Shown here: positions 2,405 through 31,508 of the stretch, in pieces
How positions within the stretch are numbered: position 1 is the stretch's first letter
How the letters are laid out: the number at the start of each line of letters is the position of its first letter
Assembly (NCBI GenBank): GCA_011522855.1
Contig: WTID01000005.1
Location: 42,965-80,755 of the forward strand
Source of the DNA: Flavobacteriales bacterium
Lineage (GTDB): Bacteria; Bacteroidota; Bacteroidia; Flavobacteriales_D; Sanyastnellaceae
Direction: 5' to 3'
Length of the DNA: 37,791 bases
Notes under the pieces: model-generated
What the model was told of the DNA's origin: nothing
The model's database searches: none
What the model saw: only the letters and a program-made list of their open reading frames with translations
Program-made: the position numbers and the translations under genes

Positions 2405-3832
2405 TCAGCGGACCAGGAACGCCTCGGAGGCTCCCCAATCCGTCTTGATTACGTACGTGCCCGAAGGCCACCCTTCCGTCCGGAACGTGGACCAGCCTTC
2501 GGCCTGCATCGGCCAGTCGGCCTGATGGCGCCCCATGACATCGTACACCCGAGCCACTCCCGCGCGGGTCGAGCGGAGGCGAACCTGCCCTTCCTCGGGA
2601 TGGAGGACCACCTGGGGTTCCGGGACCGTCGGCTCCGCAACCGCGTCGATGAGTCCGGAGGGCCGGACCATGAAGAAATGGCTCTGCGTGCTGATGGCGA
2701 TGTTCCCACTCTCGAAGTAGGGATAGACACTCCAAGCTCCTCCACCGGTTCCGACCTGGTCGCTGAATGGATTGGTGTCGAAGAAGGCCGTCATCTCCAG
2801 CGTGGCGGTCGCGGGGTCCACGATGTCCAGCACCTGAATGCCGGCGAAGTAGTTCGCCGCGTACACCTTGCCCTCGTGGGTGTAGAGGTTGTGGTCGGTC
2901 ACCGGGAGTGCGCCCTCGTGGTACCCCACAACGATGGGGTTGTCCAAGTCCTGCACATCCATCACCCAGGTCCGGGTCAACGGAGCCACGCCAGTCGACT
3001 CGTCAATCTCGTCGTTCATGAAGAGGAAGCGGTGGTCCTCGGACAACCACCCCTGATGGGTGTAGACCCACGCCGAATCTGAAACATTGGCCACGGTGAA
3101 GCAGTCCGTCTTGTCCTCCACGTCCACAATGCGGACGCCGGCGAAACCACACAGGGCGAAGACCATTTCCCGGCCCACGTAGTCCTCGTCGGGCCCGGCA
3201 TAGACCACGGCCTGAGCATCATGTACGTAAAGGGCCTCCCAGGATCCGGCCAAGGTGGGACTGGACGGATTGCTGACATCCACGATGTGCAGGCCTCCTG
3301 AGAACGTGTCTGTCCCAACGCCGTAAACGTACCCGGTCTCCGGGTTCGCCACCACATTGTGGGCCCGACCGAAGCCGGTGTAATGGGCAAATGTGAGGGG
3401 CGGCGTCATCGGCTCCGCATCGGGGATGCCGGACAGGTCGATGACCTGCATACCATGCTCCTGGGCCTCGCTCACGATGAAGGCCACGTCGCCGATGACC
3501 TTGATGTCCCGCCACAAGCTCGGGATGGAGGCGGTCGGAACATCGGCGACCATCACGGGATTCACCGGATCGGTGACCTCGATGATGGACGTGCCGTCGC
3601 TGCGACCGTACAGGACGAACTCCCGGCCGTCATGGGTCCATCCCCAGCAGTCGTTTCCGTTGCCCGGAGGCACACCGCCGAGCTCCTCGAAGCTCCGGAC
3701 ACACATCAGGTCGAGTCCCTCGCAAGGATATTGTCCTGCCACGCCATCCTCACACGGGGTCTGGGCCACGGTTGACCCGGACAGTCCCAGCGTGACGAGC
3801 ATCAGGGCCAGGGAGAACAGGCGGAACCGCAT
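2405..3832 (-). CDS. secreted LVIVD-repeat (choice-of-anchor-B-like) beta-propeller protein with T9SS C-terminal sorting domain
   Basis: Signal peptide MRFRLFSLALMLVTLGLSGSTVAQ starts at the ATG at 3832. There are repeated LVIVD-type strands (MQVIDLSG, LHIVDVSNP, VRIVDVED, IQVLDIVDP). The last ~70 aa (VLHPEEGQVRLRS...VYDVMGRH...GTYVIKTDWGASEAFLVR) fit the Por/T9SS type-A CTD pattern. Confidence 0.85.
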   Translation of the reverse strand: MRFRLFSLALMLVTLGLSGSTVAQTPCEDGVAGQYPCEGLDLMCVRSFEELGGVPPGNGNDCWGWTHDGREFVLYGRSDGTSIIEVTDPVNPVMVADVPTASIPSLWRDIKVIGDVAFIVSEAQEHGMQVIDLSGIPDAEPMTPPLTFAHYTGFGRAHNVVANPETGYVYGVGTDTFSGGLHIVDVSNPSSPTLAGSWEALYVHDAQAVVYAGPDEDYVGREMVFALCGFAGVRIVDVEDKTDCFTVANVSDSAWVYTHQGWLSEDHRFLFMNDEIDESTGVAPLTRTWVMDVQDLDNPIVVGYHEGALPVTDHNLYTHEGKVYAANYFAGIQVLDIVDPATATLEMTAFFDTNPFSDQVGTGGGAWSVYPYFESGNIAISTQSHFFMVRPSGLIDAVAEPTVPEPQVVLHPEEGQVRLRSTRAGVARVYDVMGRHQADWPMQAEGWSTFRTEGWPSGTYVIKTDWGASEAFLVR

Positions 3833-4094: not shown

Positions 4095-4112
4095 GTCGTG
4101 AATCCAGCCGAA

Positions 4113-6212: not shown

Positions 6213-6289
6213 CAGTGGGCGATTCGAGGCCGAAAAATAGACAATCTTGCACCTCCCTGGCCGTTGGGACGGTCCAAGACGACGCTTCC

Positions 6290-15124: not shown

Positions 15125-16024
15125 ATGGCCCTTCGCATCCACACTGAATGGGGAAGGCTCGACAGGGTCGTCGTCGGTCACGGCCGGGACATGGGCGTCC
15201 GGCCCACGGTGGAGACGGCGTATGACCCGACGTCCCGGTCGCACTTGGCCGCCGGCACCTACCCGGGGGAAACCCAGGTGGCGACGGAATTGGACGGATT
15301 GGCCCAGGCCCTCACTTCCCGCGGAGTGGACGTTCTGAGACCAGTGGATGTTCCGGAACTGGAACAGGTGTTCGCCCGGGACGTGGGCCTCGTCATCGAA
15401 GACGTCTTCTTCCGCTCGCGCATGATCGAGGATCGCCAGGCAGAATGGGCGGGCATTGCCCCCTTGCTCGGGGACATCACGCTCGACACGTTTCCCGATG
15501 AGGTCCGTGTGGAAGGTGGGGACGTTCTCCTGCTCGACGATGCCATCGCCATTGGGGTGACCCAAGACCCCGACTTGGTCGGCCTCCAAACGGCGAGGAC
15601 CAATCCGGAGGCAGCTGAGTTCCTCCGCGGTCGGTTTCCGCACCGGGAAGTGATCGAAGTCGAGCTCTACAAGGATGACCACAATCCGCTGCGGAGTGCC
15701 CTCCACCTTGATTGCGCCTACATGCCCCTCGGGGGCGGTGAGGCCATCATCGCACCTGAAGCTTTTCTTGAGCAGAGGCAACTTGACCTGCTGAAAAACA
15801 GGCACTCGAGCATCATCACGATTTCAGGTGCAGAGGCCGCATTGCTTCAGTCCAACCTGCTTCACCTGGATGCCCGAACCATCCTCATCGATCCCCGTTT
15901 CCAGCGGGTGGGACGTGCGCTGGAGTCCCTCGGTTACACCCTCATTCCCTGCCCCATGGAATCCGTGGGCCGGATGGGAGGCCTCTTCCGTTGCACCACC
16001 CTTCCTCTGAACCGCCATTCCTGA
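15125..16024 (+). CDS. guanidino-group modifying enzyme (amidinotransferase / DDAH / arginine deiminase superfamily)
   Basis: 299 aa. The C-terminal catalytic Cys motif MGGLFRCTTLPL and the internal EGGDVLLL and LHLDC motifs are typical of the GME fold. Confidence 0.8.
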   Translation: MALRIHTEWGRLDRVVVGHGRDMGVRPTVETAYDPTSRSHLAAGTYPGETQVATELDGLAQALTSRGVDVLRPVDVPELEQVFARDVGLVIEDVFFRSRMIEDRQAEWAGIAPLLGDITLDTFPDEVRVEGGDVLLLDDAIAIGVTQDPDLVGLQTARTNPEAAEFLRGRFPHREVIEVELYKDDHNPLRSALHLDCAYMPLGGGEAIIAPEAFLEQRQLDLLKNRHSSIITISGAEAALLQSNLLHLDARTILIDPRFQRVGRALESLGYTLIPCPMESVGRMGGLFRCTTLPLNRHS

Positions 16025-16031
16025 TCTCTCC

Positions 16032-16985
16032 ATGGACTCCCCCCACCTGCACCAGTCGGCCGACTTGCTCTTGATGATCCGGCCGGCGTCCTTCCGGAAG
16101 AATGAGGAAACCGCCGTCAACAATGGCTACCAGCAGGATGCTGACTCCGGTGAGGACACGGTGGACCTTGCCCGCCGGGAATTCGATGGACTGGTCGATG
16201 CTCTGCGCGCCGAAGACATCGACGTGGCGGTCTACGAGGATGATCCCGAAGCCGACACTCCCGACGCCTTGTTCCCCAACAACTGGGTCAGCTTCCATGC
16301 CGATGGCCGGGTGGGACTCTACCCCATGTTTGCCGTGAACCGCCGCCGGGAGCGCCGGGAAGAGCTCATCCACCGCCTTGCTGCAGACCATGACCGCGAC
16401 ATGGAGGAATGGGTCGACTTCACGGAATTTGAAGCGCACGACGTGTTCCTCGAGGGAACGGGCAGTCTGATCCTCGACCGGCCCGGTGGTATCGTCTACG
16501 CCTCAGTCGGTCCGCGGACGGATGCCCGGGCCGCCGAACAGTTCGCCGACACCTTTGGCATGGAGCTGGAAGCCTTCACCGCCTTTCAGACTGCAGGCGA
16601 CCGCCAGGCCCCCATCTACCACACCAACGTGATGCTGGCCATCGGTACGGATTGGGCGGTGGTCTGTGACGAGATCGTCACCGATGACGCCGAGAGACAG
16701 GCCCTCCTCGATCGATTGACAGGATCGGGCAAGGTTGTGGTCCGGATCACCGCCGAGCAAGTCAATGGCTTTGCGGGCAACGTGCTCGAGGTCCTGAACC
16801 GAAAGGGGGAACGGCTGATTGCCATGAGCTCCGCGGCGCACGCGAGTTTCACAGAGACCCAGCGCGCCACGCTCGCCTCCTGCGCCCGATTGGTCCACGC
16901 CCCCATTCCCACCATCGAAAAGCTCGGGGGTGGATCCGTCCGCTGCATGTTGGCGGAAGTGTTCCTCCCCAAAGCCCAAGACTGA
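16032..16985 (+). CDS. arginine deiminase-related protein (CtlX-like citrulline utilisation hydrolase family)
   Basis: 317 aa. The C-terminal GGGSVRCMLAEVF catalytic Cys motif and the N-terminal LLMIRPASFRKNEETAVNN resemble the amidinotransferase-like CtlX family. Confidence 0.75.
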   Translation: MDSPHLHQSADLLLMIRPASFRKNEETAVNNGYQQDADSGEDTVDLARREFDGLVDALRAEDIDVAVYEDDPEADTPDALFPNNWVSFHADGRVGLYPMFAVNRRRERREELIHRLAADHDRDMEEWVDFTEFEAHDVFLEGTGSLILDRPGGIVYASVGPRTDARAAEQFADTFGMELEAFTAFQTAGDRQAPIYHTNVMLAIGTDWAVVCDEIVTDDAERQALLDRLTGSGKVVVRITAEQVNGFAGNVLEVLNRKGERLIAMSSAAHASFTETQRATLASCARLVHAPIPTIEKLGGGSVRCMLAEVFLPKAQD

Positions 16986-19129: not shown

Positions 19130-19402
19130 TCAGAGTGCGAAGATGCCGCCAATCCGGCCAACGGCCTCGTAGCGCTCAAAGACGTGGTCCGCTGACGCCA
19201 TCTCCTCCCAGATGGTCAGGGAAACGTACTTCCCTCCCCCACTGGACTTGCGCTCGACCCGGACGTCATCGGGAAACACGGCGAGCACGGATCCGATGCG
19301 GTCCGCCTGATTGGGCGCGATGAACTTGAACATGTACTCGGCCGGCCAGTCATGGTGTGCGTCGAGTTGGGCCCGAAGCCCTGCCTTCCTGTCCTCGTCC
19401 AT
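19130..19402 (-). CDS. DUF493 (YbeD-like) family protein
   Basis: The 90-aa product from the ATG at 19402 (MDEDRKAGLRAQLDAHHDWPAEYMFKFIAPNQ...) fits the YbeD/DUF493 pattern. The longer ORF from 19582 would overlap the giant gene. Confidence 0.75.
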   Translation of the reverse strand: MDEDRKAGLRAQLDAHHDWPAEYMFKFIAPNQADRIGSVLAVFPDDVRVERKSSGGGKYVSLTIWEEMASADHVFERYEAVGRIGGIFAL

Positions 19403-19419
19403 GCCGCGAAGGTACCCGT

Positions 19420-19451
19420 GGAAAATGGAAAGGGACGCCCGAAGGCGCCCC
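19420..19451 (-). terminator. candidate rho-independent terminator of the giant gene
   Basis: The minus strand reads GGGGCGCC-TTCG-GGCGTCCC (8-bp stem including one G-U pair, UUCG tetraloop; 19432-19451). It is followed by TTTCCATTTTCC (19420-19431) and begins 48 nt after the stop at 19500. Confidence 0.45.
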
Positions 19452-19499
19452 TTTCGCTTGGTTCTCGTGAGAAGGATGTGGTGTCCCCTCAAGCGAGCA

Positions 19500-22400
19500 T
19501 CACTGCGGGCAATCCGATCCGTAGATCTGGAAGAAGTCCAGCAGGTCATTGATGTTGATCGTGCCGTCTCCATTGAGGTCACCCGGGCACGGCGGCGTGT
19601 ACTCGCAGCTGCCGTCGTTGGTGTTGGCGAGCGGGTTGTAGTTCTCGGCCTGTGGATCCGTGCAGCCTTCCAGCGGCAGGATGCAACCGGAATCGAAGTT
19701 GGCGCTCGGGTCGTAGTTCAGGGCCGTCTCATCGGTACAACCGGGGTAGAGACAGGAACCGTCGTCGATCAGGGCATTCTCGTCGTAGTTGGCCGCGGCA
19801 GCGTCCGTGCAGCCTTCCGTCGGGTAGGCGCAGAAGCCGGCGACGTTCGCATTCGGGTCGTAGTTGTCGGCCTCCGGGTCCATGCAGCCGAGGAACAGGC
19901 AGGTGCCGTCATCGACCAGGGCGGTGGCGTCATAGTTGACCGCAGCCGCATCGGTACAGCCCTCCATCGGGTAGGAACACTCACCGTCCACATTGGCCGA
20001 GGCGTCGTAGTTGTCGGCTTCCGGATCCGTACAGCCAAGGAGCAGGCACGTGCCGTCCTCGTCCGTGGCGGAGGCGTCGTAGTTCAGGGCGTTCGGGTTG
20101 GTACACCCGGCCACCTCGAGCTCGTCGCAGATGCCGTCACCATCCCCGTCGTTCATGCAGGTCTCCCCATCGCAGTCGTAAATGCCCGTGTAGGTGCAGC
20201 TTCCGTCGTCGCTGGTGGCGCCATCCACGTAGTTGCAGGCGCTCTCGTCCGTGCATCCGCAACCGGGGTTGCCGATCGGGAAGGTCATCACGAGGTCGTT
20301 CTCGCCATCGCCCTCAGGGAAGACCTGGAGGCTGATCTGGCCGCTGAGCGTACCACTCGTGGTGAATTGGCCGAGCAGGACGCGGAGGTCGTCACCGGCC
20401 TGAGCGTTGGTCGCCCCGTTCAGGGTGAACCAGGCACCACCGAAGGATCCATCGATGGTGATGTTGCCACCGGCCTCGAACGGCTCGATCCAGTTGGCGT
20501 CCTCACTCTGGACTGCGGTCACTTCCACCTCACCGGCGAGCAGGTTGGGAGCCTGCGTCAGTCCGATGGTCACGTAGCTGTCGTACTCCAGGGCCGGCTG
20601 GATGCCGAACAGGATCGGGTTGATCACCTGTCCGAGGGCTCCGCCGAAGGGATCCTGGTAAAAGGACGTGCTCGTGTTGATGTACGTCTCCAGTCCGTTC
20701 TCACCGACCACGCTGGAGAGCACATCGGTCGGGTTGACCATCGTCACGTACAGGCGGTAGGTCGTCATGCCCGGGATGGCGTCCTCGGCCACGGTCTCCA
20801 GCTCGATGCTGTAGCCGTCGATGACCGGGGCGTTGACGCAGCTGCAGTAGTCGCAGGAACCGTCGTCCACGTTGGCGGGCTCGAAGTAGTTGCAGGCACT
20901 CGGGTCCGTGCAGCCTTCGATGTCGGCCACCACACAGGAACCGTCGTCCTCGTCGGCCAGCGGGTTGTAGTTCAGGGCCTCCGGGTTGGTGCAACCGGCA
21001 TAGAGGCAGGATCCGTCACCGGCCATGGCGTCGGGGTCGAAGTTCAGGGCAGCCGGGTCGTCACAGCCGAGGGCGAAGGTCACCGTGATGGCCTGGGCCA
21101 CTTCGGTGCTGTTGCCACAGTCGTCGGCGATGGTGAAGGTCCGGGTGGCCGTGTAGCCTCCCAGCCCCTGCTCCGTGCAGACGTCGACAAAAGTGATTGT
21201 CACCGTGCCACAGGCATCCTCGGCCTCCGGCATGTCCACCGGGATGGACTGACCGGCCACCACCTGGTAGCTCGTGTCGGCCGGAGCGGAGGTCACCACA
21301 GGCGCCGTGTTGTCGGTGAAGACGATGGTCTGGAGGTGCGTGGCGCTGTTGCCGCAACCATCCTCCGCCGTGAAGGTCCGCAGGACGGTGAAGTCGCCGG
21401 CGCAGTCTCCCTGAACAGTCTCATCGCTGTAGGTCACGGTGACAGAACCGCAGTCATCGCTGGCCGTGGCTTCCGTGACGGGCAGTTCCTCACTGCACTC
21501 GAGGGCGAGGTCCTCCGGGGTGCTGGTGAACACCGGAGCCGTCGTGTCGAGGAAGGAGATCGTCTGCAGGTGCGTGCTGACGTTGCCACAGCCGTCGATG
21601 GCCGTGAAGGTCCGCTCGATCACACGGCTTCCGTCGCACGGGAAGCTCTCGCTGTCGGCGTACGTCACCGCAACACCGGAACAGGCATCGGTGGCCGTGG
21701 CCATCTCGAGGGTGTAGTCGTCGCTGCAATCCAGCGTCTGATCAGCCGGAGCGAAGTCGAACACCGGGGCCGTCATGTCTTCCAACGTGATGACCTGCTG
21801 GGCGCTCGTGCTGTTGCCACAAGCGTCCGTGACCGTCCACGTCCGGGTGATGATGTTGCCGGAAATGCAGTTGGAAGCGCCTTGGGCGGTCATGGAGGCC
21901 GCACCACCGCTGGTGATGGACATCATGCTGCCGGCCACTTCGGTCCAGCTCAGGACGATCTCCTCGCTGGAGACGGACTGGCTGTACTCGGCCGTGGACG
22001 CATCCACGAAGAGGCTGTTGGCGCCGAGTTGGGCTCCCACGAGTCCGGCACCGCTGATGTTGCTGATGCGCACCTCAATGTAGTCGTAGCTCTCGGAGCC
22101 AATCACGTCGAGAACGCTCAGGTTGATCTGGTCACCGGCGATGTCCACGCTGAGGGCACCGCGCAGGTTGATCGGGTTGGACACCTGATCGTCCAGGTCG
22201 AGTTCGACACCGTCGCCGATGGTCACGCCCGTGGCCTCGAGGACCCGCGGGAAGGCGGCGAGGTTGTTGAGGCGGAGCTCCACGCGGAGGTCGGCAGTCA
22301 GGCCGTCGAGCGAGAACTGGCCATCGGTCACCGCATCGCTGAAGCTCACTGTCGGATCGGCATCGCAAGCATCCGCGGCATCGGTCACGTCTCCAGCCCC

Positions 22401-25400
22401 GGCCGGCGTCGTGTCGGCGGAACAATCAAGGGTCACATCAGCCGGTGCCGTGAAGGTCGGCGCGGTGGTGTCCTCAAAGGTGATCGTCCAATCGTGCGTG
22501 GCCGTGTTGCCACAATCGTCCTCAGCGGAGAAGGTCCGCACGACCTGGTAGGTGCAGGCGTCAAGGGTGGTTTCCACATCGGAGAAGGTCACGTTGATGG
22601 CGCCGGAGCAGAGGTCGTCCGCCGTCACCGCAGTGGCCGGGATGGCCTCACCGCATTCCAGTGTGGTGTCCGCGGGCAGACCGGAGAAGGCCGGAGCCGT
22701 CTCGTCCACCACGGTCACTGCCTGGATGGCCTGGCTGAAGTTGCCACAGGCATCGATGGCCGTGAAGGTCCGGATGAGCGTGTACTGGTTGGCACACGTT
22801 CCGGCCTGCGTCGTCATCTCTTCTGTCAGGTCCACCGTGCCGCAGGCATCGCTGGCCGTCGGCATGGGGAAGTCGTACTCGTCCTCACAGCTGAGGGTCA
22901 CATCGGCGGGCAAGTTTTCGATGGTCGGAGCCGTCGTGTCCTCGATGGTGTAGGTCGTCACGGCCGTGTTTACGTTGCCGCAGGCATCCTCAGCAGACCA
23001 GGTCCGCACGAGGGTTCCCGTACCACCGCACCCGGTTTCCGTCATCTCGTCAACGTAGGTGATCGTCACACCATTGCAGTTGTCCACGGCCACGGCGAGG
23101 TTCGTCGGGAGCGGATCGCCGCACTCGAGCGTGGCATCGGCCGGCACGTTGGTGAAGACCGGAGCGGAATTGTCGACCACATGGATCACGTGGCTGACGG
23201 TGTCGGCATAACCGAAGTTGTCGGTCACCACGTAGGAACGGACGATGTCATAGGTCTCGCCACACGGTCCGTCGAGGATCTCGTCGAAGTAGGAGAAATC
23301 GAGATCCGTGTCGCAGTTGTCCGTGGCCGCGGGGTACTCCACGTCCATGCTGGCGGCGGTGCAGCTGATCTCCATGTCCTCGGGCGTCTCGGTGAAGACC
23401 GGAGCCTCGCTGTCGAACAGGCAGACATCGTCGCACTCGTAACCGAACTGCGGGTAGTAGCAGCTCTCGTCGTCGATGATGGCGCTCGGCGAGTAGTTGC
23501 AAGCCGTCTCATCGGTACAGCCACACTGGCTGCCGCCGAAGGTGAGGGTCACGCGCTCCTGGTTCAGGTTGCTTCCCTCCGGGAACACCTGGACGTAGAA
23601 CTGACCGCTGAGTTCGCCGTTCGTCGTGAGCTGGGCGAGCAGGACCTTGTGGTCGTCGCCGGCCACACCGTTGGTCACGTCGGGATTGACGAACCAACCG
23701 GAACCGATGATGTCATCGATGGTGAAGCCGTTGCCTGCCTCAAACGGTCCGCTCCACGGATCGGGTTCGGGCAGTCCCTGGACGCTTCCCTGACCGAGGG
23801 ACGTGTTGGGCACGGCGTCGATGCCAATGGTGAACCAGCTGTCGTACTGGATCTCCGGGAAGAAGTCATACAGGATGGGGTTGATGCCGTTCGGGAACAC
23901 ACCTCCATTCGGGTGCTGGTAGAAGTCCCCCGTGGTCTCCACGTAGAGGGGATTCTCCGTTTGACCCGTCACCGCGCTCACCTGGTCGGTGGCATTCGGC
24001 ATGGTGATGTAGATCCGGTAGGTCGTGTAGCCGGGGATGCCGTTGAGGGCATACTCTTCAATCTCCACGCCGTACTCGGGCATGTCGGTCGTGTAGCCGG
24101 CGCAGCTGCAGTAGTCGCAGGAACCGTTGTCGGTGTCGGCCAGCGGCTGGTAGTTGCAGGCCAGCTCGTCCATGCAGCCCTCGAAGTTGCCGTCGAAGGC
24201 GTCACAGATGCCGTCGCCGTCGCTGTCCACGAGGCAGTTGCCGTCGCAGTCGTATTCGGGCTCCGGATACGTACAGGATCCATCGTCGGTCGTGGCCGTG
24301 GCATCGTAGTTGCACGCCGTGGCGTCGATGCAGCCGAGGCAGCTCGTGAAGTCACAGGACCCGTCGTTCAACGTGGCCGTGGCGTCGTAGTTGCAGGCCG
24401 TGGCGACGGTACATCCTGCGCAGCTCGTGCTCTCGCAGCTTCCGTCATCGAACGTGGCGTTGATGTCGAAGTTGCAGGCCTCGAGGTCCGTGCAGCCCAA
24501 GGTCTCCTGCTCGTCGCAGATGCCGTTGGCGTTGCTGTCGTTCAGGCAGTCTCCGTTGCAGTCCACGAAGGCACTGGCCGGGAACACGCATCCGCCGTCG
24601 TCGGAGGTGGCCGTGGCGTCATAGTTGCACGCCGTGGCGTCCGTACAGCCGCTGCAGGAAGCGTAGTCACACGTGCCGTCGTTGATCGACGCCGCAGCGT
24701 CGTAGTTGCAGGCGGCAGCGTCGGTACAACCGGCACAGCTGGTGGTGTCGCAAGAGCCATCGTCAAACGTGGCGCCGTCGGTGTAGTTGCAGGCCAGCGG
24801 GTTCGTGCAGCCCATCACCTCGGTCTCGTCGCACAGGCCATTGGCATTGGCGTCGTTGAGGCAGTTGCCGTCACAGTCCACATAGTCCACTCCATAGAAG
24901 TCCACGGCGTAGAGGCAGGTCACGGAAATCGTGGCGTCTGCGTCATAGTTGCAGGCAGCCGGATCCGTACAACCGGCACAGGAGGAGAACTCACAATCGT
25001 TCTCCGTATCGCCGAAGTTGCAAGCGAAGGGCAGCTCACACCCCACGAACTCGATGCTCGGGGCGGAACCACCATAGGTGCATCCGTAGGTCAGGAAATC
25101 GGCCACGCCGTCCTCATAGTTGTCGGCAGCAGGGTCACCACAGCAGGTCGTGAAGTCACAGGCGCTGTCGTCCTGGAGCGTGGCCGTCGGGTCGTAGTTG
25201 CAGGCGAAGGTCACCATGCACCCGGCGCAGCTCGTGTACTCACAGGAACCGTCGTCGACGTTGGCCCCGATGAAGAAGTTGCACGCTTGCGGATCAGTAC
25301 ACCCGCCATACTCGCAGGAGCCATCGTTGAAGTCCACCGTGGCGTCGTAGTTGTCGGCGTCCGTATCGGTGCAACCGCCAAAGAGGCACGAACCATCGTC

Positions 25401-28400
25401 GATTGTGGCCGTCTCGTCGTAGTTGAAGGCATCGGCCGAAGTGCATCCGCGGCAGCTGAAGAACTCACAGGAGCCGTCGTTCAACGTGGCCGTCTCGTCG
25501 TAGTTGCACGCGATGTCGTTGGTACAACCGGCGCAGCTCGTGGTGTCACAGGAACCGTCGTCCACGTTGGCGTCCAGGTCGAAGTTGCAGGCGAGCGGAT
25601 CGGTACAACCGGGGTACTCGCAGGAGCCGTCGTTGAAGTCGGCCGTGGCGGAGTAATTCGATGCGGCGTCATCGGTACAGCCACCAAAGACACAGGAGCC
25701 GTCATCGAGAAGGGCGTCCGCCTCGTAGTTGGCGGCGGTGGCATCCGTGCAGCCATAGCAGTCGAACGTACAGGAGCCATCGTTCTCCGTGGCGGCCGGA
25801 TCGTAGTTGCAGGCGCCTTCGTTGTTGCAGCCCTGGACCTCGTTGAGGTCACAGATGCCATCGAAGTCGGCGTCGCTGATGCAGGATCCGTCACACTCGT
25901 AGCCGTAGTCGGCGTACCAGCAGGTGCCATCGTCATCCGTCGCGTCGGCGCTGAAGTTGCAGGCCGTGTCGTCCATGCAGCCGGGGACCTCGTCCTCGTC
26001 ACACACACCGTCCTCATCGAGGTCGTTCAAACAGATGCCGTCACAATCGAAGTGGGTGGCGCCGTACAGATCCTCGGGGAACAGACAGTTGTCGTTGTCC
26101 GTGTAGGCCGTGGACGGATCGTAGTTGCAGGCCGTCTCCAACTGGCAGCCACATTGGGGCTCACCCCAGCGGAGGGTCTGGAATTGCATGTTGTCGCCGT
26201 CTCCGTTGGGGAAGACCTGGACATACACCTGGCCACTGAACACGCCGTCCGTGGTGAACTGACCAATCAGCACACGCAGGTCGTCGCCAGCGGCTCCGTT
26301 GGAAGAGCCGTTCAAGGAGAACCAGCCGCCGCCATAGGCGCCACCGAGTTCGATGTTGCCTCCGGCCTCGAAGGCGCTCACCCAGGACTCGCCCTCGACG
26401 AGGGTCACTTCGCCTTCACCGGCAGCCGGATCGGCCGTGCTGGTGAGGCCGACGGTCACCCAGCTGTCGTAGACGAGCGGCGGGAAGGCGTCGTAGAGCA
26501 TGCCGTTGATGCCATGGGCACTGGCGGCGCCGAGCGGATCCTGATGGAAGCTCGTGCTCGTCCGGATGTAGGTGGGGTTCTCGGAATCGCCGGTCACGGC
26601 GCTGAGGAAGTCGTCCGCGCTCTCCATGGTCACGTAGACCTGGTACGTGGTCATGCCGTCGATGCCGTCCTCGATCGTGTCGATGTCGAGGTTGTACGGA
26701 CCGCTGGCCGGGTACACCCCGTCACAGGAACAGTAGTCGCAAGACCCGTCGTCCGCGGTGGCCACGGCATCGTAGTTGCAGGCGAGGGCGTCCGTGCATC
26801 CAAGGCTCTGCAGGACCGTAATGGTTTGCGTGGCCGTGGCGGCATTGCCGCAGGCGTCCACGGCCGTGAAGGTCCGGGTCACCAGGGTGTAGTCGTTGGC
26901 GGAATCGTCCGTCTCGTCGGCGCTCAGGATGGTGGCGCTGCTGCAGTTGTCCGCCGCTTCGGCCGCATCCGTCGGAAGCGCGTCGTAGATGCTGATGGTC
27001 ACGTCTGCCGGCACGCTCGAGAAGATGGGCGCGACGGTGTCGATGATCTGAATCGTCTGGACATGCTGGGTGCTGTTGCCACAGGGATCAGCCGCCGTGA
27101 AGGTCCGGGTGATCGTGGACTCACCGGCACACTCCCCGTCCTGGGTCTCTTCGGACAGGCTGATGGTCACGTCGCCACAATCATCTGCCGCCTCGATGGT
27201 GGACGCGGGCACGGTGGCGTCACAGGCGATGGCCGTGTCGGCCGGGAATGCCGTGATGGTCGGAGCCTGGGCGTCGACCACGGTGATGACCTGGATGCTC
27301 ACGGATTCATTGCCGCAGGCATCGGTCACACGCCACGTCCGGGCGATGTTCTCGCCGACGCAGGGGTCCATGTTGAACAGGTCGGCATCGTTGTAGGTCA
27401 CCGTGTACTCATCGCAATCGTCCGCGACGGTCACGTCACCCGTGGTGGCGGGGCTGAGGTCGGAACCGCAGGCCACCGTCAGGTCAGCCGGAGCTTCGAA
27501 AACAGGAGCGTCGTCGTCGATGACGGTCAGCGTCCAGGTGGCGGTGCTGCTGTTGCCGGCGGCGTCCGTGGCCGTGTAGGTCCGGGTGATGATGGTCGTA
27601 CAGGCGTCGCCGGAGGTGGTCTCCTGCAGGTCGACCGTGAAGTCGGAACAGGTGTCTTCCACCGTCACGTCGGATCCGGGCAGCGCCTCCTCGCATCCGA
27701 GGGTGAGGTCGGCCGGGAAGTCCACAAAGGCCGGAGCCGTCGTGTCGACGTGGGGACCGAAGGTGAGCATCACGAGCTCACCGAGGCCGTCGGCCTGTCC
27801 GTGCGGGAAGACCTGCACGTAGAACTGGCCGCTGGGCGTGCCATCGGTGGTCAGCTGGGCGAGCAGGACGCGCTGGTCAGCACCCGACACACCGTTGGTG
27901 TTGTCGCTGGTCACGTACCAGGCGCCACCGAAGAAGCCGTCAATGGCGAAATCCTGACCGGCCTCGAACTCGGCGGTCCAGCTTTCGCTGTCAGCCTCGG
28001 CATAGCTGATGTTGGCCTCACCGGCGGCGAGGTCGGGCATCTGGTCGATGCCAATGGTCAGCCAGCTGTCGAACTCCAACGAGGGGAAGGACTCGAACAG
28101 AAGCGGGTTGATGCCATTCGGGAAGAGTCCTCCGAGCTCATCCTGGTAGAACGTGCCCGTGCTGGACAGTGCCGTGGGGTTCTCGGAGTCACCGCTGACC
28201 GCGCTGACGAGGTCGTCGGCATTCGGAGTGTGGATGTAGTAGCGGTAGGTCGTCATGCCCGGCACGCCGTCCACGGCCACGATCTCCTGCTCGAGGCTAT
28301 AACCCGCGCTGCTGGAGGTCACATCGGCACAGCAGAAGAAGCAGGAACCGTCGTCGTCGGTGGCGCCGGAGCTGTAGTTGCAGGCCGTGGCGTCCGTACA

Positions 28401-31367
28401 ACCGGCGATCTCCTGTCCGTCGCAGATGCCGTCGGCATCAGCGTCGGCGAGGCAATTGCCGTCACAGTCGACGTGCTCATTGGCCGGGAACGTGCAAGTT
28501 CCGTCGTCGGTCAGGGCATCCGCATCGTAGTTGCAGGCCGTGGCGTCCATGCACCCGGGGTTGGATGAGGACAGAACGGTCGGAATCCCCACGGCTTGAA
28601 GGCCGGCATCGGTCGCTGCCTGGGCTGCTGCAGAGTTGAAGTAGTAGATGTAGCCAATGGCTGCGGCCTCAAGGGACCACCAGTCCGTGACATCCGGCAA
28701 GATGCTGTTCGGCAGGCTGGCCAGGAGGATCAAGGACGTACCGTTCGTGTATTGGTTCAAATCCAAGGACGTGTTGGTGCAGGCGGTCAAGACCGAAGCA
28801 TATCCGAGACCGTCCATGTTGTTTCCAGAAATGGCCAGATTGTTGGCCTGTCCGGCCACGACTCCGGAGGTCCAGGGAGCGCCATTGACCAACACCTGCT
28901 GGATGTTGTAGAAGTGGTTGTTGGAGATGGTCACCCCCTCGGTGTTGTCCCCCAGCGAAATTGCGGTACCGGACACGCCGTGAATCTCGTTGCCATCGAT
29001 CAGGATGTTGGACGGCGGGTTGACGGGATCCGAATTGCCCCAGCACAGGATGCCATAGGACAACGGCGAGCTGTTGCCAGGGTTGGACAAGGCCATTCCG
29101 CTGATGTCATTGTTCTGGATGGACACATTGGAGGCGCCGGGGTTGACCGTGATTCCAGAGTACGTGCTCGCATCCCCCACCAGGGTGAAGTTGCTGATGC
29201 TCACACCGTCCACATCGGAGGCGATGGAGATACCGACACCAAGGCCGGAGACATCGAGGGTGCTTCCATTTCCGTTCAGGGAAAGGCCCTTGTCGACCGT
29301 GATGCTTTCCGAAAGGGTGATTCCGGAGACCACTTCGAGGGCATCGCCAGCCGAAGCGGCGTCAATGGCGCCCTGCAGCGTGGTGTGGGCCGTACCGGCT
29401 GTGGTGTTGTTGACGTCGTAGCAGATGTCGCAGCTGTTCCAGCAGACGACCGGGAGGGTCGCAGTGCCGGTCACGTCGACTACGCGGTTGACGAATTCAG
29501 CGGGATCGGTCGTGCAGGACTCGGTGCCGTCGAAAGACTCGGACGCATCCCAGCCATTGACGGTGTATTTGTACTCCTGCAGTCCCTCGGTGAGGGCCAC
29601 CGTGAAGGTGTAGACGCCGTCGCCGTCGGAATCGTCCATGGCGTTGCAGCCACCACACCATCCGTTGTAGGTGCCGTTCAGGAAGACGCCGTCCCCGGCA
29701 TTCAGCCCATACTGGCTCATGTCGACTTGGAAGGTGACGTTGTACTGGCAGGACGCATCGTCCACGAGGGCGGTGCTGTCGTAGTTCAAGGCGTCGGAGT
29801 CCATGCAACCGGCGTTTTCCACGCAGGCCTCACAGCTGTTGTAGCAGACCAGATCCAACGTCAGGGGAGCGTCAATCAGCTCGAAGCCGCGGTTGGCGAA
29901 CCCGTCGTTGGGGTTGTAGTCACACGGAGCGCCCACGGGGAGCTCCTCCTGGGCCGTCCATCCGTTGATCGTGAACTTGTATTCGACCACGCCGGGGGCG
30001 AGCGGCAGGGTGGCGGTCCAAACGCCGTCGGCATCGTCGTCAGCGAGCGGATTGCAGGCGCCGCACCACCCATTGAAGCTGCCATTGACGTAGGCGATGT
30101 CCCCGTCTTGCAGACCGGCCTGGCTCATGTCGACCTGGAAGGTGACGTTGTAGAGGCAGGATCCGTCATCGGTGGTCGCCGTGGCGCTGTAGTTGGTGGC
30201 ATCGTCGTCCGTGCAACCGAGGGCGGCCTCGGCCTGCTCGTCGCAGGTCAGGCAGCTGCCGTAGGTGTCGGTCGTGGTCGAACCCGCCGCCGTGAGGCGG
30301 TTGGCGTAGGTGGCGGCATCGGTGACCGCGGCGCAGGCTGCTCCGGCCTGGGCGTCATCGATGAGGTTTTCCTGGGAAGCCCAGTTGTCGATCATGTACT
30401 TGTACTCCACATCACCGGCCGGAATGCACACGGAGACGCTGTACACGCCGTCTCCGTCCTCATCGGACAGGGTGTTGTAGGCCTCGGCACCGCACCAGCC
30501 GCACCAAGGGCCGGTCACGTGCACGGAGGAGAAGGTCTCGCCGCTGCAGGACATGTCCACGGTGAACGTGGTCGGCGTGGTCAGGCAGTTGCCGTCGCAG
30601 TCGAAGTTGGCGGCTGCATAGGTGCAGGTGCCGTCATCCTCGGTGGCCGAGTCGTCATAGTTGCAGGCGTTGCTGTCGGTACACCCGGCGCTGCCGCAGG
30701 ACACGGTCTGGAAGCCGAAGGTGTTCTCGATCAGGAGGGACTGGTCTCCGTTGGGGAAGATCTGGATGTAGAACTGCCCGCTGAGGTCACCGTCGGTGGT
30801 GGCCTGCGCGAGGAGCACCTTCTGATCGGCACCGGAGATGCCGTTGGCGCTGCTGGGCAGAATGTACCATCCCCCGCCGATGGGCGAGCTGATGTCCACG
30901 TTGCCGCCGGCGCCGAACCCGATTTCCCAGGAAGCGACGTTGGGGTCGACAAGCAAGGAGATGTCGGTCTCACCCGCGCCGAGGTCCGGCTGCTGTTCGA
31001 TTCCGATTGTCACCCAGCTGTCGTACAGGACATTCTCCAGTCCCGGCATGGTGTAGAACAAGGGGTTGATGGCCGCAGGGGTCGTTCCACCCAGAGCGTC
31101 CTGATAGAAGGACGTGGTGGTGTTGAGGAACAAGGGATCCGTAGCATCTCCAATCACGGCGGACACGAAGTCATCCGTGGAGGGGGTGTTGAGATACACC
31201 CGGTAGGTGGTCAAACCGGCGACCACATCCGTGGCCACGGTCTCCACCGAGAGCGAGAATCCCGCCATGTCTCCAGTGGACTGGAAACAGGCGTTCTGGG
31301 CATTCGCGGTGCCAAAGAAGGTCACCAGCAAACAAGCGAGGGAGTACAGTTGAAAGCGCATGTTCAT
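19500..31367 (-). CDS. giant secreted Cys-rich mosaic surface protein / putative adhesin (3,955 aa)
   Basis: Uninterrupted frame. The ATG at 31367 gives the signal peptide MNMRFQLYSLACLLVTFFGTANA-Q. The upstream part of the 4,464-aa ORF-track entry is antisense to ffh and is discarded. Modular repeats are listed as separate features. Confidence 0.9.
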   Translation of the reverse strand: MNMRFQLYSLACLLVTFFGTANAQNACFQSTGDMAGFSLSVETVATDVVAGLTTYRVYLNTPSTDDFVSAVIGDATDPLFLNTTTSFYQDALGGTTPAAINPLFYTMPGLENVLYDSWVTIGIEQQPDLGAGETDISLLVDPNVASWEIGFGAGGNVDISSPIGGGWYILPSSANGISGADQKVLLAQATTDGDLSGQFYIQIFPNGDQSLLIENTFGFQTVSCGSAGCTDSNACNYDDSATEDDGTCTYAAANFDCDGNCLTTPTTFTVDMSCSGETFSSVHVTGPWCGWCGAEAYNTLSDEDGDGVYSVSVCIPAGDVEYKYMIDNWASQENLIDDAQAGAACAAVTDAATYANRLTAAGSTTTDTYGSCLTCDEQAEAALGCTDDDATNYSATATTDDGSCLYNVTFQVDMSQAGLQDGDIAYVNGSFNGWCGACNPLADDDADGVWTATLPLAPGVVEYKFTINGWTAQEELPVGAPCDYNPNDGFANRGFELIDAPLTLDLVCYNSCEACVENAGCMDSDALNYDSTALVDDASCQYNVTFQVDMSQYGLNAGDGVFLNGTYNGWCGGCNAMDDSDGDGVYTFTVALTEGLQEYKYTVNGWDASESFDGTESCTTDPAEFVNRVVDVTGTATLPVVCWNSCDICYDVNNTTAGTAHTTLQGAIDAASAGDALEVVSGITLSESITVDKGLSLNGNGSTLDVSGLGVGISIASDVDGVSISNFTLVGDASTYSGITVNPGASNVSIQNNDISGMALSNPGNSSPLSYGILCWGNSDPVNPPSNILIDGNEIHGVSGTAISLGDNTEGVTISNNHFYNIQQVLVNGAPWTSGVVAGQANNLAISGNNMDGLGYASVLTACTNTSLDLNQYTNGTSLILLASLPNSILPDVTDWWSLEAAAIGYIYYFNSAAAQAATDAGLQAVGIPTVLSSSNPGCMDATACNYDADALTDDGTCTFPANEHVDCDGNCLADADADGICDGQEIAGCTDATACNYSSGATDDDGSCFFCCADVTSSSAGYSLEQEIVAVDGVPGMTTYRYYIHTPNADDLVSAVSGDSENPTALSSTGTFYQDELGGLFPNGINPLLFESFPSLEFDSWLTIGIDQMPDLAAGEANISYAEADSESWTAEFEAGQDFAIDGFFGGAWYVTSDNTNGVSGADQRVLLAQLTTDGTPSGQFYVQVFPHGQADGLGELVMLTFGPHVDTTAPAFVDFPADLTLGCEEALPGSDVTVEDTCSDFTVDLQETTSGDACTTIITRTYTATDAAGNSSTATWTLTVIDDDAPVFEAPADLTVACGSDLSPATTGDVTVADDCDEYTVTYNDADLFNMDPCVGENIARTWRVTDACGNESVSIQVITVVDAQAPTITAFPADTAIACDATVPASTIEAADDCGDVTISLSEETQDGECAGESTITRTFTAADPCGNSTQHVQTIQIIDTVAPIFSSVPADVTISIYDALPTDAAEAADNCSSATILSADETDDSANDYTLVTRTFTAVDACGNAATATQTITVLQSLGCTDALACNYDAVATADDGSCDYCSCDGVYPASGPYNLDIDTIEDGIDGMTTYQVYVTMESADDFLSAVTGDSENPTYIRTSTSFHQDPLGAASAHGINGMLYDAFPPLVYDSWVTVGLTSTADPAAGEGEVTLVEGESWVSAFEAGGNIELGGAYGGGWFSLNGSSNGAAGDDLRVLIGQFTTDGVFSGQVYVQVFPNGDGDNMQFQTLRWGEPQCGCQLETACNYDPSTAYTDNDNCLFPEDLYGATHFDCDGICLNDLDEDGVCDEDEVPGCMDDTACNFSADATDDDGTCWYADYGYECDGSCISDADFDGICDLNEVQGCNNEGACNYDPAATENDGSCTFDCYGCTDATAANYEADALLDDGSCVFGGCTDDAASNYSATADFNDGSCEYPGCTDPLACNFDLDANVDDGSCDTTSCAGCTNDIACNYDETATLNDGSCEFFSCRGCTSADAFNYDETATIDDGSCLFGGCTDTDADNYDATVDFNDGSCEYGGCTDPQACNFFIGANVDDGSCEYTSCAGCMVTFACNYDPTATLQDDSACDFTTCCGDPAADNYEDGVADFLTYGCTYGGSAPSIEFVGCELPFACNFGDTENDCEFSSCAGCTDPAACNYDADATISVTCLYAVDFYGVDYVDCDGNCLNDANANGLCDETEVMGCTNPLACNYTDGATFDDGSCDTTSCAGCTDAAACNYDAAASINDGTCDYASCSGCTDATACNYDATATSDDGGCVFPASAFVDCNGDCLNDSNANGICDEQETLGCTDLEACNFDINATFDDGSCESTSCAGCTVATACNYDATATLNDGSCDFTSCLGCIDATACNYDATATTDDGSCTYPEPEYDCDGNCLVDSDGDGICDAFDGNFEGCMDELACNYQPLADTDNGSCDYCSCAGYTTDMPEYGVEIEEYALNGIPGYTTYRIYITMPNATDQVSAVTGQTENPLYVETTGDFYQHPNGGVFPNGINPILYDFFPEIQYDSWFTIGIDAVPNTSLGQGSVQGLPEPDPWSGPFEAGNGFTIDDIIGSGWFVNPDVTNGVAGDDHKVLLAQLTTNGELSGQFYVQVFPEGSNLNQERVTLTFGGSQCGCTDETACNYSPSAIIDDESCYYPQFGYECDDVCLFDSEAPVFTETPEDMEISCTAASMDVEYPAATDNCDTDLDFSYFDEILDGPCGETYDIVRSYVVTDNFGYADTVSHVIHVVDNSAPVFTNVPADATLECGDPLPTNLAVAVDNCNGVTITYVDEMTETGCGGTGTLVRTWSAEDACGNVNTAVTTYTIEDTTAPTIENLPADVTLSCEDEYDFPMPTASDACGTVDLTEEMTTQAGTCANQYTLIRTFTAIDACGNFSQAIQAVTVVDETAPAFSGLPADTTLECGEAIPATAVTADDLCSGAINVTFSDVETTLDACTYQVVRTFSAEDDCGNTATHDWTITFEDTTAPTFTAPADVTLDCSADTTPAGAGDVTDAADACDADPTVSFSDAVTDGQFSLDGLTADLRVELRLNNLAAFPRVLEATGVTIGDGVELDLDDQVSNPINLRGALSVDIAGDQINLSVLDVIGSESYDYIEVRISNISGAGLVGAQLGANSLFVDASTAEYSQSVSSEEIVLSWTEVAGSMMSITSGGAASMTAQGASNCISGNIITRTWTVTDACGNSTSAQQVITLEDMTAPVFDFAPADQTLDCSDDYTLEMATATDACSGVAVTYADSESFPCDGSRVIERTFTAIDGCGNVSTHLQTISFLDTTAPVFTSTPEDLALECSEELPVTEATASDDCGSVTVTYSDETVQGDCAGDFTVLRTFTAEDGCGNSATHLQTIVFTDNTAPVVTSAPADTSYQVVAGQSIPVDMPEAEDACGTVTITFVDVCTEQGLGGYTATRTFTIADDCGNSTEVAQAITVTFALGCDDPAALNFDPDAMAGDGSCLYAGCTNPEALNYNPLADEDDGSCVVADIEGCTDPSACNYFEPANVDDGSCDYCSCVNAPVIDGYSIELETVAEDAIPGMTTYRLYVTMVNPTDVLSSVVGENGLETYINTSTSFYQDPFGGALGQVINPILFGIQPALEYDSYVTIGLTQAPNLLAGEVEVTAVQSEDANWIEPFEAGGNITIDGSFGGAWFTLNGATNAQAGDDLRVLLGQFTTSGTLSGQISLQVFPEGDGENDLVMTFPIGNPGCGCTDESACNYVDGATSDDGSCTYTGIYDCDGETCMNDGDGDGICDELEVAGCTNPNALNYDASATDEDGTCLLLGCTDPEADNYDASANVDGECSYPMEGCTDAAAVNYDATALVDDGTCLFLGCMDPEADNYDPNANVAGFCAYPTEGCTDAAAANYDENALIDDGSCLYPGCTDETALNYDPSANFDSGCILPLEGCTDPQAENYNPLANTNDGSCEYTPPCPGDLNGDGTININDLLDFFQIYGSDCPQ
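19503..19589 (-). other. C-terminal dockerin / EF-hand-like Ca-binding motif bracketed by two Cys
   Basis: aa 3927-3955, CPGDLNGDGTININDLLDFFQIYGSDCPQ. The DxNGDGxIxxxDLL pattern equals one half of a type-I dockerin. Confidence 0.55.
19590..20264 (-). repeat. C-terminal array of 8 Cys repeats (GCTDxxAxNYDxxAxxDDGSCxY) plus one TSP3-like motif
   Basis: aa 3702-3926. The last six units alternate between two subtypes, forming a ~49-aa super-repeat present three times. Confidence 0.8.
20265..20816 (-). repeat. unassigned ~185-aa module, copy 5
   Basis: aa 3518-3701: GMTTYRLYVTM...FYQDPFGG...INPILF...YDSYVTIG...FEAGG...GGAWF...DDLRVLLGQFTTSGTLSGQ..QVFPEG. Confidence 0.8.
21069..23414 (-). repeat. 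8 tandem HYR-like (Ig-fold) modules; the fifth is split by an insertion
   Basis: aa 2652-3433. The ~80-aa period has the pattern D..AP.F...P.D.T..C......A.D.C........C....RT.T..D.CGN......I... Confidence 0.7.
23526..24074 (-). repeat. unassigned ~185-aa module, copy 4
   Basis: aa 2432-2614: GYTTYRIYITM...FYQHPNGG...INPILY...YDSWFTIG...FEAGN...GSGWF...DDHKVLLAQLTTNGELSGQFYVQVFPEG. Confidence 0.8.
24075..26153 (-). repeat. main array of ~21 Cys repeats (CxxACNYDxxAxxDDGSC) interleaved with 5 TSP3-like DCDGxCxxDxDxDGxCDxxE motifs
   Basis: aa 1739-2431. Two adjacent ~104-aa higher-order units at 24255..24881 are roughly two-thirds identical by eye. Confidence 0.85.
26154..26696 (-). repeat. unassigned ~185-aa module, copy 3
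   Basis: aa 1558-1738: GMTTYQVYVTM...FHQDPLG...INGMLY...YDSWVTVG...FEAGG...GGGWF...DDLRVLIGQFTTDGVFSGQVYVQVFPNG. Confidence 0.8.
26802..27746 (-). repeat. 4 tandem HYR-like (Ig-fold) modules
   Basis: aa 1208-1522, with the same ~80-aa pattern as 21069..23414 (DTTAPAFVDFPADLTLGC ... RTYTATDAAGN ...). Confidence 0.7.
27747..28304 (-). repeat. unassigned ~185-aa module, copy 2
   Basis: aa 1022-1207: GMTTYRYYIHT...FYQDELGG...INPLLF...FDSWLTIG...FEAGQ...GGAWY...ADQRVLLAQLTTDGTPSGQFYVQVFPHG. Confidence 0.8.
28557..29411 (-). other. right-handed parallel beta-helix (PbH1 / pectate-lyase-fold-like) region
   Basis: aa 653-937. Successive ~22-aa rungs are rich in G/N/I/S (ISIASDVDGVSISNFTLVGD, GITVNPGASNVSIQNNDISG, NILIDGNEIHG, GVTISNNHFYN, NLAISGNNMDG). 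Confidence 0.6.
29412..30569 (-). other. three CBM20/CBM48-like (E-set) beta-sandwich modules separated by single Cys repeats
   Basis: aa 267-652. Each unit has VTFQVDMS...V.V.G.FNGWCG...D.DGDGVW/Y...L..G..EYKY/F..NGW. Confidence 0.6.
30684..31295 (-). repeat. unassigned ~185-aa module, copy 1
   Basis: aa 25-228: GLTTYRVYLNT...FYQDALGG...INPLFY...YDSWVTIG...GGGWY...ADQKVLLAQATTDGDLSGQFYIQIFPNG. Confidence 0.8.
31296..31367 (-). other. Sec signal peptide of the giant protein
   Basis: MNMRFQLYSLACLLVTFFGTANA|Q: basic N-region, hydrophobic core and an A-x-A cleavage motif. Confidence 0.8.
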
Positions 31368-31508
31368 GCAGTTAAGCGCATCTAAGATAGCTCTTTTGTC
31401 CAAGACTTCTACAGTTTCATCTAAGTTTTTTTCTGTTTCGTCGTCATTTTGAACACTTACAGGCAGCTCAGGGCCCTCCCCTTTCCCCGGTCTACCTTTG
31501 CCGTCCCC
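31368..31508. promoter_or_regulatory. AT-rich divergent promoter region between the giant gene and ffh
   Basis: This is the lowest-GC stretch I saw in the window (tctaagatagctcttttgtccaagacttctacagtttcatctaagtttttttctgtttcgtcgtcatttt). An exact -7 box, TACCTTTG, lies at 31493-31500, 8 nt before the ffh ATG. A near box, TATCTTAG, lies on the minus strand at 31382-31389, 14 nt before the giant-gene ATG. Confidence 0.45.

Follow-up and report, generated by a model that had tools for sequence, protein, structure and literature searches.

Surface display of exported proteins in Bacteroidota is currently explained by the C-terminal domains (CTDs) of the type IX secretion system (T9SS) and by lipoprotein export. 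T9SS CTDs of type A (TIGR04183/PF18962) and type B (TIGR04131/PF13585) are β-sandwiches of 70-100 amino acids (aa) that form the very end of adhesins and enzymes exported by Sec. A different kind of extracellular module is represented by the Ca2+-dependent dockerins of cellulosomes (PF00404; 2y3n_B, 6kg9, 5nrm and 2ccl), found in cellulolytic Firmicutes, which consist of two repeats and tend to be located toward the C-termini of enzymes. A further two-repeat module, the GC-type dockerin, is curated as NCBIfam NF041540, a family which we take to be computationally defined. Here we analyze a 37,791-nucleotide (nt) stretch of DNA from an uncultured, marine member of the Flavobacteriales (GenBank assembly GCA_011522855.1, contig WTID01000005.1, positions 42,965 to 80,755), referred to as the window, which encodes a giant secreted mosaic protein of 3,955 aa on its minus strand (19500..31367; identified by translation and Pfam). 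The final 29 residues of this protein, CPGDLNGDGTININDLLDFFQIYGSDCPQ (19503..19589, minus strand), from here on called the tail, correspond to a single Cys-bracketed dockerin-type repeat. The tail holds the position that a T9SS CTD occupies in related proteins, yet is itself no T9SS CTD. We hypothesize, with a probability of about one half, that it would serve as a Ca2+-dependent, disulfide-clasped C-terminal docking handle. A literature search found no paper describing either the tail or a "GC-type dockerin".

The tail coincides exactly with the final 29 codons of the gene. The encoded C-terminal end reads ...SCEYTPPCPGDLNGDGTININDLLDFFQIYGSDCPQ*, or in a longer view ...NDGSCEYTPPCPGDLNGDGTININDLLDFFQIYGSDCPQ, followed by the stop codon TGA (19500..19502, minus strand, as are all tail features below), which comes immediately after ...CPQ and is unchanged in contigs from four studies. 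The tail opens with the first Cys of the bracket (19587..19589; module position 1), which is invariant in 20 diverse tails and in 27 sequences comprising both Cys repeat and tail. Then follows the 12-residue Ca2+-loop consensus DLNGDGTININD (19545..19580; D1, N3, D5, G6, I8 and D12), which is conserved, aligns with both loops of 2y3n_B and is predicted to bind Ca2+. The exiting helix INDLLDFFQIY, succeeded by an invariant Gly (19521..19553), was located at residues 46-56 of an AlphaFold2 model of Cys repeat plus tail. The second bracket Cys (19509..19511), likewise invariant, is found 25 residues past the first and 0-2 residues from the C-terminus and presumably forms a disulfide with it; the C-x25-C spacing is fixed in 41 distinct tails. 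Upstream, the linker EYTPP (19590..19604), whose length varies between ~3 and 13 aa across families, connects the tail to the last "GCTDxxAxNYxxxAxxxDGSC" Cys repeat (19605..19667), in which G8, C9, N16 and C28 are invariant in 27 sequences. One such repeat (GCTDxxAxNY...DDGSC) precedes the tail in nearly all tail-bearing proteins, and the two together form a unit of ~55 aa with four invariant Cys. Translation and profile matches agree with the preliminary description of this DNA, made without database searches, which had read the last 29 aa as a dockerin or EF-hand half-site closed by a Cys pair and located directly after an array of Cys repeats.

As an isolated 29-mer, the tail matches Pfam Dockerin_1 (PF00404) over positions 1-16 of 57 with E=0.0025 and 18.4 bits, below the gathering score of 22.9, and EF-hand_1 (PF00036) over positions 10-27 of 29 with E=0.0018 and 18.1 bits (gathering score 25.4). 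Against NF041540, positions 1-32 of 67 are matched at 17.2 bits, which does not reach the membership cutoff of 29; the same model is also matched by 14 of 20 diverse single tails, the best E-value being 4.6e-4. The C-terminal position, the starting Cys and the closing G..C that characterize NF041540 are all present, with C1 and C27 being invariant, and of the two repeats in this model the tail contains one. Similarly, the Ca2+ loop DxNxDGxIxxxD followed by a helix, typical of type I dockerins, is present in the one segment of the tail, but not the pair of 22-residue segments. Two-repeat tails from the same metagenome-assembled genomes (MAGs) match NF041540 over positions 1-67 at 28.8-32.1 bits, around the cutoff, and an in silico tandem of the window tail, used as a scoring control only, reaches 28.3 bits over the same positions. 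When the 20 diverse single tails are combined into a profile, this aligns with the B. cellulosolvens dockerin 2y3n_B at E=1e-9 over both of its repeats, through the loop, the helix and the terminal FG, and further dockerins and EF-hand proteins are found below it in the list. AlphaFold2 modeled the last 62 aa with 27 homologues at a mean predicted local distance difference test (pLDDT) score of 86.8 and placed a helix on INDLLDFFQIY. Foldseek searches using the tail model did not return any significant match (best E=3.1); the 17 weak matches were almost all dockerins or EF-hands, which is suggestive only. Based on the profile, model and NF041540 evidence, the tail can therefore be assigned as a single dockerin-type repeat representing one half of a two-repeat GC-type dockerin.

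A phmmer search with the 31-aa end against 1.84 billion representatives identified 2,359 proteins at E≤0.001. The motif is present in 2, 4, 6 or more copies in most of them, frequently as CPxDxNGDGxVNxxDLLxLLxxWGxCP units. Within the 150 phmmer matches listed, a single matched stretch was found only in orthologues or fragments of the giant protein and in the 46-aa fragment P0073. The motif had earlier been called lone, which holds within the giant protein but not elsewhere, as it ends dozens of secreted proteins of marine Flavobacteriales and constitutes a single-repeat form of NF041540. This single-repeat form is captured by none of the searched models, whereas the two-repeat module is already curated.

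Similar to NF041540 modules, the tail is located C-terminally, starts with a Cys, closes with G-x-x-C and contains a DxNGDG loop followed by a hydrophobic helix. It differs in having one repeat, so that half of the model is missing, and in that its Cys bracket closes this single repeat, unlike the Phycisphaerae GC-type form (locus L079), where one Cys pair spans two repeats. With cellulosomal dockerins the tail shares the repeat sequence, the predicted loop-helix fold, the extracellular Ca2+-dependent context and the tendency toward enzyme C-termini. However, it consists of one repeat plus a Cys bracket, its host is a Gram-negative marine member of the Flavobacteriales, and no cohesin or scaffoldin was identified for it. 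The canonical EF-hand (PF00036) has the same 12-residue loop consensus and exiting helix; in contrast to it, the tail is extracellular, presumably disulfide-bracketed and below threshold, and lacks the entering helix because CPG precedes the loop. In dockerins, the two termini engage in a stabilizing "intramolecular clasp" (Slutzki et al. 2013, PMC3821032). By analogy, the Cys pair of the tail may represent a covalent version of this clasp. In both cases the two termini of the module would be held together, thereby stabilizing the Ca2+-bound fold, but the dockerin clasp relies on non-covalent stacking across two repeats and the tail on a presumed disulfide across one.

T9SS CTDs and the tail have the extreme C-terminal position in Sec-exported Bacteroidota adhesins and enzymes in common and occupy the same slot in homologous architectures. 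Unlike the much larger β-sandwich CTDs, however, the tail is a loop plus helix of ~29 aa without sequence or profile similarity to them. Searches with NCBIfam models, including TIGR04183 and TIGR04131, gave zero matches at E≤10 over the last 100 or 200 aa, no T9SS sorting-domain model was matched over the whole giant protein, and neither PF18962 nor PF13585 was found in it by Pfam. Type-A and type-B CTD profiles, built from 34 giant proteins rich in HYR domains (HYR giants) each, were compared by hhalign with the last 62, 150 or 300 aa of 22 orthologues, which yielded type-A probabilities of 0.1-1.4% and type-B probabilities of 1.4-18%. As a positive control, the C-terminus of the protein encoded at 2405-3832 of the window was aligned with type A and reached 95.8% (E=8e-9), so the method is able to see a divergent CTD. 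The weak type-B match, covering 15 columns at up to 18%, was judged to be spurious as it involves the NGDG motif only. These empty searches bear out the earlier observation that the giant protein has no T9SS sorting domain, and the divergent CTD that a sensitive profile search might have revealed was not detected at the C-terminus (0.1-18%, compared with 95.8% for the control). As a separate observation, type-B CTDs carry a short NGDG-type motif near their start that weakly matches the dockerin loop, probably through convergence or chance.

The control protein also bears on the use of T9SS in this lineage. It is a choice-of-anchor B protein (TIGR04312, E=7e-112) with a divergent type-A CTD (2408..2620, minus strand), assigned via homologues, colinear alignment and hhalign. 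This CTD matches TIGR04183 with E=0.036 and 14 bits, under the cutoff of 23; homologues at 45-52% identity carry PF18962, and the C-terminus is colinear with the one aligned. The predicted CTD of this protein shows that the lineage uses T9SS signals, as had been proposed in the preliminary description, but in view of its sub-threshold TIGR04183 score it is not the "classic" CTD it was taken for. Further, one 3.48-Mb scaffold encodes a giant with a type-A-like CTD (faint precomputed PF18962 match only) together with two tail-bearing open reading frames (ORFs). In P0054 and P0062, an internal pair of tail-type repeats is followed by a CTD-like end, judged by eye and without a hidden Markov model (HMM) test. 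The repeat can thus be located upstream of a CTD-like end within one protein, and is therefore a module of its own and not a disguised CTD.

A search with HYR blocks, carried out independently of the tail, listed 116 non-orthologous HYR giants. T9SS CTDs were found in 85 of these (73%; 51 PF13585 and 34 PF18962), in agreement with the earlier expectation that HYR-rich giants of Bacteroidota usually end in a type-A or type-B CTD, and several of the remaining ones have CTD-like ends by eye. Two giant HYR proteins, P0176 and P0198, end in a single dockerin-like repeat, CPDFNGDGQVQTQDLLDFLIAWGAVYE, in which the first Cys is kept and the closing Cys is missing, so the bracket is not universal. Four HYR_4C giants (P0177, P0201, P0262 and P0280) share another, unassigned Cys-rich end, ...RLSC.G......F.G...C.....FDAACPDE.CLP..IELG.RP, distinct from both T9SS CTDs and dockerin-like tails. 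Another HYR_4C protein, P0282 (2,438 aa), is filed under the copepod Tigriopus californicus and probably results from bacterial contamination of that assembly.

The 3' end of the gene is consistently observed in independent data. The same tail is found in 21 orthologue protein clusters of 2,190-3,955 aa (ENA, JGI, NCBI and Logan), and 14 MAG loci have the same tail and stop, with the convergent argS gene downstream being syntenic. Logan contigs covering 19200-19900, originating from four runs and four studies, have zero differences across tail and stop codon; the sole variant, a minor Logan contig, differs at two positions near 19291-19306, outside the gene on its downstream side. An assembly error that removed the true C-terminus, the second caveat raised at the outset, does not fit the recurrence of this end in protein clusters, MAG loci and contigs alike. 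The tail is also transcribed, with RNA contigs from four seawater metatranscriptomes extending over it at ~96% identity. Within the tail, these contigs differ at 19548, 19572 and 19578 only, all of which are third-codon positions and synonymous, so that the identical tail is encoded. They terminate 10-50 nt beyond the stop codon, at 19452-19491, in or just before a GC-rich hairpin located ~45-60 nt beyond the stop (19440..19456). This hairpin may act as a terminator for the convergent upstream genes as well. It should be noted that the orthologue clusters and loci were selected by tail similarity, and orthologues with other ends would therefore have escaped. The tail-independent HYR-block search recovered, besides unrelated HYR giants, only the already known orthologues P0006, P0007, P0008 and P0012.

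Residues 3922-3950 form the most conserved 29-aa window of the giant protein across 22 orthologues, with 98.9% conservation compared to a mean of 75.8%, a value that is biased because the orthologue set was selected by the tail. At the codon level, the 27 codons from Cys to Cys show 34 extra synonymous codon types and 7 extra amino-acid types over 14 loci. The conservation of the tail is thus due to purifying selection on the peptide, and the motif goes far beyond a chance occurrence. Across 20 diverse tails, C1, P2, D4, D8, D15, G24 and C27 are invariant, and N6 and G7 are conserved at 90% or more; the invariant residues correspond to the predicted Ca2+ ligands, the helix-ending Gly and the Cys bracket. 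Positions on the helix surface are fixed within the orthologues of the giant protein and differ between families.

The tail alignment was used to scan a single genome for each species; of the 240 loci confirmed, 80 were kept, nearly all from uncultured marine Flavobacteriales, Crocinitomicaceae or Cryomorphaceae MAGs. Beyond 15 orthologous loci, the scan revealed ~35 ORFs with different architectures whose C-terminus lies 0-2 residues past the second Cys of one single repeat, and ~15 more that terminate in a double form with four Cys. Among the passengers are Peptidase_M43, a BD-FAE esterase with a carbohydrate-binding module, Endonuclease_1 with LTD, Kazal, ALK_LTK_GRD, P-domain and VCPO-like proteins, all with Sec signal peptides and A-Q-type cleavage sites. 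In 17 of 64 loci, 2-3 tail-bearing genes are found within 20 kb, with single and double forms mixed. MAGs with an orthologue of the giant protein also hold other tail proteins, as seen for L013 with L020 and L006 with L055, and the same repeats occur in 2-14 tandem copies in many proteins. Examples of clustered tail-bearing genes are L016, L017, L025, L029, L054 and L069, with L025 containing two adjacent paralogues with near-identical tails. Loci L018, L051 and L058 are three contigs of the MAG PBNL01, labeled "Methanobacteriota archaeon SP189", and encode Flavobacteriales-type proteins with Cys repeats and tails; this bin is probably contaminated or mislabeled.

If the tail is a docking handle, the giant protein would be exported by Sec, as read from its signal peptide, and would then undergo oxidative folding and Ca2+ loading in the periplasm. 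The tail could subsequently dock the giant protein, along with the other exoproteins of marine Flavobacteriales that share this end, to a partner on the cell surface. This proposal builds on directly supported elements, namely the identity as a dockerin repeat, the strictly terminal location, purifying selection, the modular distribution among exoproteins, transcription and the occurrence alongside T9SS signals. Several points weigh against it. Ca2+ binding, the C1-C27 disulfide, docking itself and an outer-membrane route are presumed steps. Canonical dockerins need two repeats, and we know of no single dockerin repeat shown to fold or bind alone. No docking partner was identified for the tail among the protein's own modules and the neighboring genes. 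The 185-aa modules of the giant protein, for which AlphaFold2 predicts a confident fold (pLDDT 92.6), were considered as candidate cohesins but do not support a partner residing in the giant protein itself, as Foldseek against the PDB returned no match at E≤0.001 and cohesins ranked 10th, 23rd and 43rd with TM scores of ~0.3. The top matches were generic adhesin β-sandwiches (Cna, C3c and RrgB), and most tail-bearing proteins do not contain this module. Clustering of 579 flanking ORFs from the window and 65 loci (L016-L080) revealed no neighboring gene common to different tail families; recurrent neighbors were housekeeping genes syntenic within one family (ValRS, TonB receptor, DUF1573 and photolyases). 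Strict C-terminal placement would fit equally well with a signal read from the C-terminus, and a tail devoted to docking alone leaves it unexplained how a CTD-less protein of 3,955 aa crosses the outer membrane.

In a rather unlikely alternative, the tail would be a new C-terminal sorting signal that replaces the CTD for passage across, or placement onto, the outer membrane and is read by T9SS via an unrecognized adaptor or by another route. Such a signal would account for the strict extreme C-terminal position in ~50 ORFs, 0-2 residues past the second Cys, for its sharing by unrelated Sec-exported passengers of the kinds usually transported by T9SS and for its location where 73% of HYR giants have a CTD. 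At least one case is known in which T9SS accepts a C-terminal region of atypical kind, namely F. johnsoniae ChiA. ORFs combining the tail with a terminal CTD were not observed, which however follows by construction, as both have to be C-terminal. A loop plus helix of 27-29 aa is unlike the CTD β-sandwich (hhalign 0.1-18%), no dedicated neighboring gene was found, and the internal repeats of P0054 and P0062, located before CTD-like ends identified by eye, are not what a terminal signal would lead one to expect. Likewise, the 2-14 tandem copies seen in many proteins resemble the behavior of a binding repeat and not of a signal. It is extremely improbable that the observation is instead an artefact, either because a frameshift or misassembly removed the true, CTD-bearing C-terminus or because a T9SS CTD of very high divergence is present. 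The only trace of a CTD is the 15-column local match to type B at 18% probability that stems from the shared NGDG-type motif. Against this stand the identical end in 21 protein clusters, 14 MAG loci and contigs of four studies, the syntenic convergent argS, the RNA contigs stopping 10-50 nt past the stop codon and the negative HMM and profile-profile searches, obtained with a positive control that worked.

EF-hand-type motifs are stable as pairs, and the tail, in place of a cohesin-like receptor, could pair in a Ca2+-dependent manner with a single repeat on another molecule, like lone EF-hands, rebuilding a two-repeat dockerin-like fold. Such pairing would result in dimers of the giant protein or in tail-bearing enzymes being cross-linked to it. 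In its favor, nearly all residues of the helix LLDFFQIY are hydrophobic and not buriable by a 29-aa module alone, single and double forms are found in the same loci, the tail tandem scores like a full NF041540 domain and no cohesin candidate was found. However, the hydrophobic face could also pack onto the preceding Cys repeat, conserved jointly with the tail, and the monomer model already reaches a pLDDT of 86.8; we regard pairing between molecules as improbable. Still somewhat less credible is a purely structural end-cap, a Ca2+/disulfide plug that would keep the Cys-repeat stalk from being unfolded or proteolyzed at its C-terminal end, without any partner. The near-constant location of the tail after a Cys repeat, with four invariant Cys in ~55 aa, the abundance of Ca-type motifs and the 216 Cys of the giant protein and the failure to find a partner would agree with a cap. 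A cap should not, however, show the highest conservation of any stretch within a 3,955-aa protein, nor would one expect it to be transplanted onto enzymes with only one Cys repeat, and the helix surface positions that are fixed within orthologues and different between families likewise argue against it.

As major degraders of algal organic matter, uncultured marine Flavobacteriales shape carbon turnover in the ocean through the way in which they retain enzymes and adhesins at their surface. A conserved and expressed C-terminal module that stands in for the CTD on dozens of exoproteins, the 3,955-aa adhesin among them, points to an additional mechanism of attachment or assembly. As a tentative idea, to which we assign about the chance of a coin landing heads twice, marine Flavobacteriales may possess a second system for placing exoproteins, parallel to CTD-based T9SS anchoring, in which a minimal half-dockerin with a disulfide clasp, placed exactly at the C-terminus, tethers giant adhesins and enzymes at the surface. 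Half-dockerins could pair in Ca2+-rich seawater, leading to cohesin-free self-assembly of enzymes onto adhesins; alternatively, the tail could bind an unrecognized receptor with a possible additional role in outer-membrane passage of the protein. Because the tail scores below the thresholds of NF041540, PF00404 and the EF-hand model, proteins of this type are filed as plain "hypothetical" with no anchor. If a partner is found, a 27-residue docking tag, Ca2+-switchable and disulfide-stapled, would be a compact tool for protein engineering.

The gene encoding the giant protein is located within a minus-strand open frame spanning 19500-32894. The part of this frame upstream of MNMRFQLYSLACLLVTFFGTANA, with cleavage before Q, is considered spurious because it overlaps ffh on the opposite strand; the gene is therefore assigned to 19500-31367, starting with MNMRFQ at 31367 and encoding 3,955 aa. 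Read by eye from the sequence, MNMRFQLYSLACLLVTFFGTANA (31299..31367, minus strand) is a predicted Sec signal peptide. The Gln after the cleavage site fits the Bacteroidetes "Q-rule", and A-Q type cleavage sites are also found in other tail-bearing proteins. Pfam identified 11 HYR_4C matches as well as CBM48/AMPK1_CBM/X25-like modules in the giant protein, which further contains five 185-aa β-sandwich modules and Cys repeats, and which is, its 216 Cys aside, rich in Ca-type motifs. Neither the giant protein nor the protein encoded at 2405-3832 had an exact-sequence match on record.

The neighbors of this gene in the window are housekeeping genes: cdaA, lptF/G, glycosyltransferases, htrA, ADI/DDAH, argS, ffh, folD and ribD. 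Between the choice-of-anchor B gene and lptF/G, a 794-aa ORF (3909-6293, plus strand) is found for which there is no Pfam match at E≤1e-4. Directly upstream of argS, two adjacent genes of the amidinotransferase superfamily, one ADI-like and one DDAH-like (15125-16985, plus strand), are syntenic in all orthologous loci.

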